From positions 125,690-189,689 of the IMG/VR virus record IMGVR_UViG_3300050821_002122: a DNA stretch of 64,000 nucleotides; one strand, written 5' to 3'. The translations under genes and the position numbers were made by a program. Shown here in pieces: positions 1-2,329 of the stretch (its first letter is position 1; the number at the start of each line of letters is the position of its first letter). Under the pieces are notes generated by a model. The model did not search any database. It was given only the letters and a program-made list of their open reading frames with translations, and was not told the origin of the DNA. The stretch comes from a virus.

Positions 1-2303
1 ATGCGATTGTTAAACGGATTGTTGTCTTTGTGGTCTACTTCAACTGGAAGGTACCCGTAAACCAGCAAAAAGGCTATTCTATGTGCTCTATACAACTCAC
101 CATTTAGGGATAGGTACCACGAATCTTTACGTTTGGAGCCTGCCACACTTCCTATAGGTGTATTGCGGCTGCGAGCTTGTTTCCAGGTGAATTTTCCACT
201 ATCTGGGTCGTAAATAAACCACTCATCCATGAGTTTTTTTAGGTCTTTATCTTCTTGCGGAATACCAGGGATAGCTATATATGCCTGCCGCAATTTCTGA
301 CCAATGCGGAAAATACCAGCCAGCACATCGTCAAGTCCAACGTAAGACCACACACGTACCTCATGCGCGGAATAATCGTAACGCATGAGCAGATAGCCCT
401 TAGGCGTAATGAACATGTGCTTGATGATCTTGGCCAATTTACCACGAGATGGAATCGTTTGCAAGCTTGGGTTCTTCGATGCCAGTCGCCCTGTAGCGAC
501 ATCGAAATACGAATAGTCGGGTCGCAGATGATGGTCTTCAATACTGTCCGCATTAGAGCGGAGTTTTTTCAGCCAACCCTTAGCATAGGTGCCCAGCAGC
601 TTAGAGAGTTTCGAGTAATCACCGTAGGCTGCTACGACCTGATTCTTATCCTTGTTGGCGGCAACAAAGGCTTTGTCGACCGACGATTCACCCTGCTTGG
701 TCGTGTTGACCGGCTCGTAACCCATGACATCGAAGAATAGAGTACGCAAGTGATTACCCTTGCTAAGACTCAATGCCCAATTCAATGCCTTGGCTCTCGC
801 TTTGCCGAACAGTCCTTTGGTTTTCAAACCGCTCTTAGCAAGTATGATATCGTTTGCCTTCACCGCCTCCGGGAACACACGGAATGCATTGCTGAGATTT
901 TTCATCTCAGTACGAAGCGGACTTTCTGTGGAGGTGAGATACTTCAGGTACTTCGCATCTATCAAGGACCCATCTTCGCGCAGGTGACTCAGTTGATGGA
1001 CGGTATCGGACATTTGGTACTGCATATGACGTACGAAATACTCACCATAAGGCTTACCATCGATCAGCTGGTGATCTGCCATCTTGATCTGTTCTTGGCG
1101 CATTGCGAGAATCGATACTACGTCCATGGCGGCATAGCGCAAGAAGTGCTTGTCGTTGGGCTTGATGTTACCGCAAGTGTTGCGATCTTCCTTGCTGAAC
1201 TTCGTAGTCTCGCGGTAGTAGAAGTCGTTGCGATAGCTGCATAGCACAGCAGCCAAGTTACCTGGCTTTGATCCGAAGTTCGACAGCTCGACGATATTTT
1301 CATCGAGGTCATGCTCACCCGCGATGATATCCCATGCGCGGTGTAGAATGATTGGTATCTTGAAATAGCGACGTATGACTCGCAGATCGTAGGGACCGTT
1401 AAAGAACACAAACTCTTTAAGACCCTTCTTTTCTGCCTCACTGAAAAATGCCTTCAGTTCACGGCGTATGTATGCAAGTTCCTCTTTGGTCCACGGTGTC
1501 ATTGGGTGGCTCAATGGAAGCACGTACCCGACGTCGGGATTCAATTCGGTGGCGAACTGCATCGTGTAGATTTTATTGAAGTGGACTGAGAGGTCTTTAG
1601 TCTCCGTATCCAATGCAATAGTCTTCGACTTGCGCAGGCGTACCATCAGCTTGTCGAATAATTCTATGGTGCCGATGTACTTAGGTTTAGGTTCCACGTG
1701 ACCAATGTCATGCGGATGTTTACCCAGCAATAGATTGTTCAAGTGTCTGCACCAGAAGCCCAGCAGATTGGCATACTTACCGTCTTTCTCCAACAATCGG
1801 CTGAAGTCCAACGTCGATACGACTTTCAACTTCAGATCATGCGACTTGAGGTCATGGACCCATCCGCGCTTGTAGGTATGCTTCTCTACCTGCGGCCACA
1901 TAGCGTTCATGGCTTCGTCACCGGAGACCAGTACATGCGTCGGCTGTAGTTTCTCAATAAGCTTGTGCATGTGGGCAGCGAACTCAAGTTCTGCTTGCTT
2001 GCGGGCTTTGCCCTTCAGGTGAAGGTGCCGTTTCTGATTGAAGTTCGCTACTGCGTAAGAAGCCTCGGCTGCACCTTCTTTGTAGGAGCGCACAATACCC
2101 CTGGTATACTTGATCGCGTTCTTGAATGCTGTGTTGACATTGCGGTCTTGAAGCAACCCTCGTGCTTTGAGATCGCGGCCGTCAACCGTTTGTAGGCATA
2201 CCAGTACGCGCTTCTTACTTTGCTTCCAGTCAGAGCAACGAGGCATATGCAGATTGTATGCGTCCTCGTCCTCATATGGAAACTTGAATGTGGTCTCAAG
2301 CAT
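1..2303 (-). CDS. polA: Family A DNA polymerase (N-terminal UDG-like domain, 3'-5' exonuclease, polymerase motif A) continuing in frame into an HNH domain; truncated at window edge
   Basis: Manual translation from ATG 2303 (SD GAGGTG) is open to position 1, so it is missing from the ORF track. ExoI IALDTET, ExoII FNGPYDL, ExoIII YAAMD, TGRLASKNPSLQTIP, motif A YDYSAHEVRV; then YDPDSG...AHRIAF...VDHKDNNPFNNR. Confidence 0.93.
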   Translation of the reverse strand, partial: MLETTFKFPYEDEDAYNLHMPRCSDWKQSKKRVLVCLQTVDGRDLKARGLLQDRNVNTAFKNAIKYTRGIVRSYKEGAAEASYAVANFNQKRHLHLKGKARKQAELEFAAHMHKLIEKLQPTHVLVSGDEAMNAMWPQVEKHTYKRGWVHDLKSHDLKLKVVSTLDFSRLLEKDGKYANLLGFWCRHLNNLLLGKHPHDIGHVEPKPKYIGTIELFDKLMVRLRKSKTIALDTETKDLSVHFNKIYTMQFATELNPDVGYVLPLSHPMTPWTKEELAYIRRELKAFFSEAEKKGLKEFVFFNGPYDLRVIRRYFKIPIILHRAWDIIAGEHDLDENIVELSNFGSKPGNLAAVLCSYRNDFYYRETTKFSKEDRNTCGNIKPNDKHFLRYAAMDVVSILAMRQEQIKMADHQLIDGKPYGEYFVRHMQYQMSDTVHQLSHLREDGSLIDAKYLKYLTSTESPLRTEMKNLSNAFRVFPEAVKANDIILAKSGLKTKGLFGKARAKALNWALSLSKGNHLRTLFFDVMGYEPVNTTKQGESSVDKAFVAANKDKNQVVAAYGDYSKLSKLLGTYAKGWLKKLRSNADSIEDHHLRPDYSYFDVATGRLASKNPSLQTIPSRGKLAKIIKHMFITPKGYLLMRYDYSAHEVRVWSYVGLDDVLAGIFRIGQKLRQAYIAIPGIPQEDKDLKKLMDEWFIYDPDSGKFTWKQARSRNTPIGSVAGSKRKDSWYLSLNGELYRAHRIAFLLVYGYLPVEVDHKDNNPFNNR

Positions 2304-2329
2304 ATGCACCTCTGTGTGATCGATATATC

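Follow-up and report, generated by a model that had tools for sequence, protein, structure and literature searches.

The 64,000-nucleotide window analysed here (G000:C1:125690-189689, the whole stretch of DNA under study) is part of a 189,689-bp IMG/VR virus record, IMGVR_UViG_3300050821_002122, which is estimated to be ~80% complete and whose source is a soil jumbo phage related to Ralstonia phage RSL1. At its left end lies most of a family A DNA polymerase gene that carries, in frame and between conserved polymerase motifs, an additional module with an HNH_3 and an AP2 domain. The gene is encoded on the minus strand and extends 1362 nt past the window's left edge. In full, using the fetched DNA neighbouring the window (L001), it occupies L001:12328-15999 (G000:C1:124327-127998) and has 1223 codons. 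The in-window part alone has Pfam matches to DNA_pol_A, a 3'-5' exonuclease domain and HNH_3 (E 5.8e-7). For the whole protein, the order of Pfam domains is exonuclease, DNA_pol_A, HNH_3, AP2 and DNA_pol_A again, with DNA_pol_A scoring 120.6 bits in three stretches.

An earlier note on the window had read an HNH nuclease fused in frame inside the polymerase, just after motif A. The minus-strand frame (window 3-2309) indeed runs past motif A, continues stop-free into HNH_3-type sequence and leaves the window at its left edge, and all 1223 codons of the complete gene are free of stops. The placement after motif A also holds and can now be refined: the insert starts at residue 679 (window 275), 27 residues past motif A and 16 before the GDIH motif, in a loop of variable length across the family, and continues for 276 nt beyond the window edge. 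The whole insert comprises residues 679-862, i.e. 552 nt (L001:13414-13965, or G000:C1:125413-125964), and its guanine-cytosine (GC) content is 43% vs 48.5% in the rest of the gene.

Nearly all of this insert is accounted for by the HNH-AP2 module, which fills it apart from the first ~7 and the last ~14 residues. The HNH_3 match reaches 50.7 bits, above its cut-off of 24.8, and the AP2 match (residues 794-845, off-window) reaches 28.2 bits, below its cut-off of 33.3. The insert aligns end to end with free-standing HNH_3 plus AP2 proteins of 150-180 residues from phages and metagenomes, with at most 45% identity, and the N-terminal helix of the module matches the N-terminus of these proteins. 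Among 47 aligned sequences, insert residues D80 and H81 are invariant and N89, N93, and N102 are conserved. Searches with phmmer relate the insert to I-HmuI (1U3E, E 0.014) and to the AP2 domain of TEM1 (E 0.002). As read from these comparisons, the insert is a complete candidate endonuclease of the free-standing HNH_3 plus AP2 type, minus start and stop codons. Pfam, the catalytic residues, and the predicted fold all place it in the HNH_3/I-HmuI-like His-Me finger family, with a putative nuclease activity. The same genome has a second, free-standing HNH_3 open reading frame (ORF) at G000:C1:119075-119440 on the minus strand, ~6.3 kb left of the window (L014); it is a 177-aa open frame that scores 51 bits and shares 37% identity with the HNH portion of the insert, with no AP2 match by tblastn. 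The features of the locus that fall within the window are collected in the table.

Table. Features of the polymerase gene and its insert within the window (residues are numbered along the 1223-residue protein)
Feature	Position in window	Strand	Basis
Family A DNA polymerase gene, in-window part, codons 1-769 of 1223	1..2309	minus	ORF lists and translation; Pfam; AlphaFold2 model
3'-5' exonuclease domain, residues 212-404	1098..1676	minus	Pfam DNA_pol_A_exo1, 33.7 bits (cut-off 23.6)
Polymerase motif A (YDYSAHEVR), residues 644-652, catalytic Asp645	354..380	minus	D645 to R652 invariant in 13 aligned polymerases
In-frame HNH-AP2 insert, first 92 of 184 codons	1..275	minus	Alignment with insert-less relatives; exact 549-nt gap in L043/L008
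Upstream junction and N-terminal helix of the module (short linker, then helix)	219..275	minus	Alignment with free-standing relatives; predicted helix, model residues 266-278, high confidence
A7 run, Lys-Lys codons (T7 on the plus strand)	234..240	minus	Same residues, other codons in relatives
HNH_3 catalytic domain, start (Pfam residues 740-783)	1..92	minus	Active-site Asp-His (D759, H760) at window 30-35; other motif residues off-window

Beyond the module the polymerase frame resumes with GDIH, motif B, and motif C, which are conserved relative to named phages. Specifically, D645, R899, K903, F907, Y911, H1075, and D1076 are conserved in the family alignment, and D645, R899, K903, and F907, together with GDIH and motif B, are still invariant when insert-bearing relatives are added (two of these being truncated). 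Foldseek identifies the protein as a family A polymerase, with matches to KlenTaq and Bst Pol I at E 1e-16 and probability 1.0. The polymerases of its closest named relatives, i.e. Burkholderia phages BcepSaruman, BcepSauron, and BCSR5, Ralstonia phage phiRSL1, and Achromobacter phage Motura, are 46-52% identical to it, have 1050-1075 residues, and are without the module. The N-terminal ~200 residues of the polymerase (window 1704-2309, minus) are conserved in the family and have no Pfam match at E<=0.1.

An AlphaFold2 model of residues 420-1223 (804 residues, 81 aligned sequences) has a predicted local distance difference test (pLDDT) score of 90.7 and a predicted template modelling (pTM) score of 0.87. 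In this model the Pol I fold is intact and the HNH and AP2 units are confidently folded; confidence is low only in two short segments, one joining HNH to AP2 (model residues 369-375) and one in the C-terminal linker (432-437). Because Foldseek returned only Pol I structures with the 804-residue model, the module was folded alone (pLDDT 89.1). Of 48,161 chains, the top one is I-HmuI (1U3E), with a modest Z of 7.8 and a root-mean-square deviation of 3.0 Å over 92 residues (model 11-110), while residues 107-176 of the module match plant AP2/ERF domains with Z of 7.4, 7.2, and 6.5 and a Foldseek probability of 1.0. The AP2 assignment is thus supported by the modelled fold, and phmmer agrees for both domains. 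The module is predicted to form a domain on two short linkers, in a variable surface loop of the fingers subdomain, that leaves the polymerase fold intact; this loop would lie between the helix after motif A and the helices bearing DIH and motif B.

A search with the module against long proteins reveals that eight further polymerases (P0003-P0010) carry it in frame and at an identical site. Identity of the module in these bearers ranges from 52 to 74%, and overall polymerase identity from 38 to 71%. The catalytic D-H/N/N positions and both linkers are conserved among them, including GDYRHP at the downstream junction. The earlier note had named, as grounds for abandoning the fusion, relatives in which the HNH is an independent gene with its own start; the bearers present the opposite picture, with the HNH fused in frame and no start of its own in 8/8. 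A stop-free insert of 552 nt in a set frame is not a product of chance, as the other two frames across it are closed (9 and 19 stops) and the frame is open in eight diverged relatives. An IMG/VR scan for further embedded copies found only the contig of P0010 again, all other matches being free-standing HNH-AP2 genes. Among themselves the embedded copies share 52% identity or more, and no free-standing protein exceeds 45% identity to them.

For the seven copies with available DNA, third codon positions differ at 0.6-0.7 of sites, compared with 0.15-0.3 at first and second positions. This pattern spans the HNH-AP2 core as well as both linkers, which argues that the frame is translated and has been under purifying selection over its whole length. 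The nonsynonymous divergence (dN) of the insert is approximately that of the polymerase, with synonymous sites being saturated, and the GC content of the insert tracks that of each host gene.

The insert has a patchy distribution. Among the 150 best representatives at 50% identity, the only carriers are P0005 and one fragment. Similarly, among the 120 closest proteins listed for the N-terminal 679 residues of the query, the carriers are only the window's protein, P0003, P0004, and P0005, and the six nearest relatives in that list (71-80% identical) are without the insert, the nearest of all having an identity of 80% across the first 679 residues, or 82% when counted in the tree columns. On a family tree of 49 sequences, built with the insert columns left out, bearers are scattered, and the well-supported branches require 7 or more gains or losses; bearers and empty sisters pair as P0008/P0019, P0005/BcepSaruman, P0009/phiRSL1, P0006/P0016, and P0007/P0048. 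A denser tree of the window's own clade places three bearers in three subclades, each beside insert-less sisters. Monophyly of the local-clade bearers is rejected by the approximately unbiased (AU) test (P = 2e-66), and about 8 losses vs 3 gains would be required in this clade. The downstream flank is 3 residues longer in bearers on different backbones than in empty sisters. In distant pairs, the insert is less diverged than its host (59% vs 38% identity for P0007, 59% vs 46% for P0008, and 67% vs 53% for P0006), which argues for some transfer. The loop of P0016, the sister of P0006, is 34 residues longer at the same site; it was considered as a decayed remnant of the module and rejected, having no significant similarity to it.

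One near-identical pair of relatives differs by the insert. P0008 has it and P0019 lacks it, and in the 666 residues that precede the site the two proteins agree at ~99% of positions. At the DNA level (L043 vs L008, with the DNA of P0008 taken from another record whose protein is 100% identical), the gap is exactly 549 nt and falls inside an Ile codon. The 2.6 kb upstream are 96.8% identical, rising to 100% in the 41 nt next to the site, whereas downstream identity drops to 60, 86, 73, 58, and 66% in successive 60-nt windows and is then 81-96% for ~540 nt. This sharp upstream edge followed by a diverged downstream tract looks like the outcome of nuclease-initiated gene conversion with one-sided co-conversion. 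Two marks of a homing gene are thus present in the sequences—i.e. sporadic presence at one site and a flanking tract that travels with the element. The same pair of contigs differs again further downstream: a 474-aa GIY-YIG/I-TevI-like gene lies directly after the insert-less polymerase of P0019 (L008:4144-5568) and is absent from the contig of P0008, and the 3' ends of the two polymerase genes diverge there to <50% identity, which suggests a second, independent homing-type exchange.

The polymerase gene family is a hot spot for selfish elements, of which several kinds occur. For example, the contig of P0005 (L006, GCA_900154555.1, 249 kb) has a group I intron just after motif B of its insert-bearing polymerase gene; the intron is followed by a 53-aa ORF, a DUF7487 gene on the opposite strand, and then a 295-aa ORF for the C-terminal part of the polymerase, making this gene doubly invaded. 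P0221 (1514 aa, JGI), a member of the same polymerase family that is 51% identical N-terminally, has a LAGLIDADG intein instead (Pfam Intein_splicing and LAGLIDADG_3). In the contig of P0010 (L007:6001-9716), the polymerase appears as two abutting ORFs of 966 and 271 aa that are split after motif B; Rfam finds no intron there, and the gene may be truly split, frameshifted, or interrupted by an element of an unrecognised kind. Helicase genes adjoining the polymerase also carry LAGLIDADG inteins, both in L006:1516-4431 (PIF1/AAA_30, 971 aa) and in L007:1-4868 (SNF2-type, 2030 aa). Further interrupted PolA genes are seen in more distant phages, namely Erwinia phage pEa_SNUABM_40 (MZ443780.1) and Salmonella phage Sen-NF (PV359490.1), in whose records the polymerase match covers 4085 bp in three pieces compared with ~2865 bp in siblings, or consists of two polymerase coding sequences flanking a hypothetical gene.

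Taken together, the comparison with relatives suggests that the module moves between polymerase genes while being made as a part of the enzyme. We consider it probable that the insert is a splicing-free homing endonuclease, tolerated as an insert of the fingers subdomain and mobile between polymerase genes. The unbroken frame rests on direct sequence evidence and on conservation; mobility and nuclease action are what we infer. In mixed infections, the I-HmuI-like nuclease, aimed by its AP2 domain, would probably nick (or else cut) insert-less polymerase alleles near the empty site, and repair by recombination, with the insert-bearing allele as template, would copy the 0.55-kb module along with the flank immediately downstream. 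Given its in-frame seat in an apparently essential gene, any nonsense or frameshift mutation in the module would destroy the polymerase, so the element would be shielded from its usual and commonest route of decay. No other PolA and no PolB was found in the record, although this is ~80% complete and the phage may possess a second polymerase. Conservation of the catalytic residues would still need selection on nuclease function, i.e. repeated homing or a benefit such as the exclusion of relatives, and the same cutting could also handicap competing relatives.

Several other explanations were weighed, some of which had been raised from the start. The earlier note had offered three options for the fusion: a split polymerase, a group I intron with its ORF fused to the exon, or a protein-level nuclease insertion tolerated in the enzyme. 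It is the last that agrees with the data, as the polymerase resumes in frame at GDIH and motif B; this resumption, with no stop before it, excludes a split gene. The intron is excluded by the combination of three results: Rfam finds no RNA family at E<=1 on either strand of L001:12000-16501, the module fills nearly all of the insert and so leaves no non-coding room for a ribozyme, and variation at third codon positions continues across both junctions. As a positive control, Rfam does find the group I intron of the P0005 contig (RF00028, L006:8742-8962), with 54.2 bits, above the gathering score. An intein is likewise rejected. Pfam reveals no Hint, intein, or LAGLIDADG domain at E<=0.1 over the polymerase, the predicted fold has only HNH plus AP2, and the note's remark that an intein-like N-terminal Cys or Ser is lacking proves correct: the first residue of the insert is Ala, replaced by Thr or Cys in relatives, and its end is Asp-Tyr, the next residue being Arg, so that no intein-like junction is present. 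With neither a Hint domain nor junction nucleophiles, the element would have no means of excision. As such, the module would not be removed at the RNA or protein level, and a single polypeptide of 1223 residues is predicted. It is very unlikely that some unrecognised RNA or protein splicing removes the module and leaves a mature polymerase without it. Nothing direct speaks for this, besides the fact that classic elements at such sites all get removed and that a group I intron and an intein occur elsewhere in genes of this family; against it stand not only the missing ribozyme, non-coding room, Hint domain, and intein junctions but also the protein-level constraint on both linkers and the model, in which the module sits on two linkers of an intact polymerase. 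An assembly or sequencing artefact, in which a polymerase fragment and an independent HNH gene are in truth set apart by an indel (e.g. in the A7 run), is scarcely credible. The A7 run, which the note had flagged as a possible indel site, lies at the positions that the note gave. It directly precedes an ATG (Met693) at the upstream junction, and slipping by -1 in the run would bring a stop into frame within four codons. However, Logan contigs from two soil-metagenome runs of different studies, one of which may be the record's own source, match exactly across the whole insert and the A7 run, with no indel, and eight diverged relatives keep the in-frame fusion at both ends. The public runs listed as containing the sequence include no RNA run. 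The A7 run and the Met are both absent from 7/7 relatives with DNA, and an indel in the run, a slippery site, or an internal start was rejected on the same two grounds, i.e. the lack of an indel in two runs and the lack of conservation.

The main rival is a domesticated accessory domain, captured once long ago and kept for its usefulness (e.g. in cutting host or competitor DNA, or in providing nicks for replication or recombination), with patchiness arising from repeated loss via empty alleles. Several observations are in line with such a history and weigh against homing. All nine copies are intact, with catalytic motif and linkers conserved, and no degenerate copy was seen among them, unlike in the classic homing cycle. 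In the three closest bearers, inserts (70-75%) and polymerases (70-71%) show similar identity, with insert dN close to that of the polymerase, which fits long residence as well as recent transfer, and insert GC follows the host gene. The embedded copies form a group of their own, the insert tree lacks resolution, and the polymerase topology is not significantly rejected on the insert alignment (AU P = 0.057). Taken alone, the L043/L008 comparison fits either a gain in one genome or a loss in the other via an empty allele, and cannot tell the two apart. Domestication is nonetheless hard to reconcile with most close relatives, including the nearest one, doing without the insert, with the 7 or more state changes on the family tree and the excess of losses it needs locally, with inserts that are less diverged than their hosts in distant pairs, and with a sharp, one-sided divergent tract of the kind left as a trace by nuclease-initiated gene conversion. 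We therefore see it as a serious but clearly less likely explanation than a mobile, splicing-free homing endonuclease, and the two are not mutually exclusive.

A further idea, which we view as doubtful, is that the embedded nickase nicks rival or target DNA and that the polymerase of the same molecule extends the resulting 3'-OH. If true, such a nickase-polymerase would parallel, at the DNA level, the target-primed synthesis of endonuclease-reverse transcriptase fusions, and nick extension would serve homing or initiate replication or recombination where the phage needs it.

To our knowledge, homing endonuclease genes in essential genes are thought to survive only inside a self-splicing intron or intein, and otherwise to reside between genes. 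What we find would apparently be a third way, in which a whole nuclease is tolerated as an extra domain of a replicative polymerase and the essential frame acts as its shield. Natural controls are at hand: alleles that lack the insert, two nearly identical genes of which one carries it, and, at other sites in the gene family, a true intron and an intein. Homing, cost to the enzyme, and exclusion of relatives are thus directly testable. Enzyme engineers, too, may find use in a polymerase-nickase fusion that occurs naturally.

Among known systems, I-HmuI, I-HmuII, I-BasI, and I-PfoP3I are HNH nicking enzymes located in group I introns of phage family A polymerase genes, and enzymes of this type nick in the downstream exon (PMC3428280). 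The present case resembles them in the host gene family and in the involvement of the fingers subdomain; I-HmuI is also the closest solved structure to the insert (1U3E), and the downstream side on which these enzymes nick is the side of the divergent tract seen here. In contrast, those enzymes are encoded by introns that are spliced out and that lie in highly conserved motifs, whereas here there is no intron, the site is a variable loop, and AP2 takes the place of the C-terminal DNA-binding domain of I-HmuI. The free-standing HNH-AP2 homing endonucleases of phages, e.g. Felixounavirus and Xp10-like ones (PMC2248197), share the two-domain architecture and the length of the module, with 35-45% identity end to end. 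They are, however, encoded on their own in the spaces between host genes, each from its own start to its own stop, and often decay, while the present copy is embedded as a domain within an enzyme. Inteins with homing endonuclease domains are also in-frame selfish insertions in essential enzymes that are translated with their host; they differ from the insert in having a Hint splicing domain and junction nucleophiles. A reclassification of family A polymerases (PMC10201439) makes no mention of endonuclease, intein, or homing.

A benefit of the kind considered above has a precedent in jumbo phages, as PhiPA3 has been experimentally shown to use an intron-encoded HNH homing endonuclease, directed at an essential gene of a co-infecting relative, in interference competition with PhiKZ (PMC11620839). 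By analogy, such targeting would be a plausible benefit here too, with the difference that the present module is not intron-encoded. The nearest published case is the insertion of the ShiLan domain in DNA methylase genes of actinobacteriophages (Arsenault, Gosselin & Gogarten 2025, PMC11855218). As that report describes it, this insertion is also stop-free in the host frame, sporadic, predicted to loop out, and HNH-associated, with no detectable intron or intein machinery. The ShiLan HNH, however, occupies a frame other than that of the host, from a GTG start to a TAA stop of its own, and what is read in the host frame is a filler loop. An insertion of that type was rejected here, given that HNH-AP2 lies in the host frame and the other frames are closed by the stops counted above. 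The nuclease of the present element is itself the in-frame read, with no conserved start or stop, and the gene that hosts it is a replicative polymerase.

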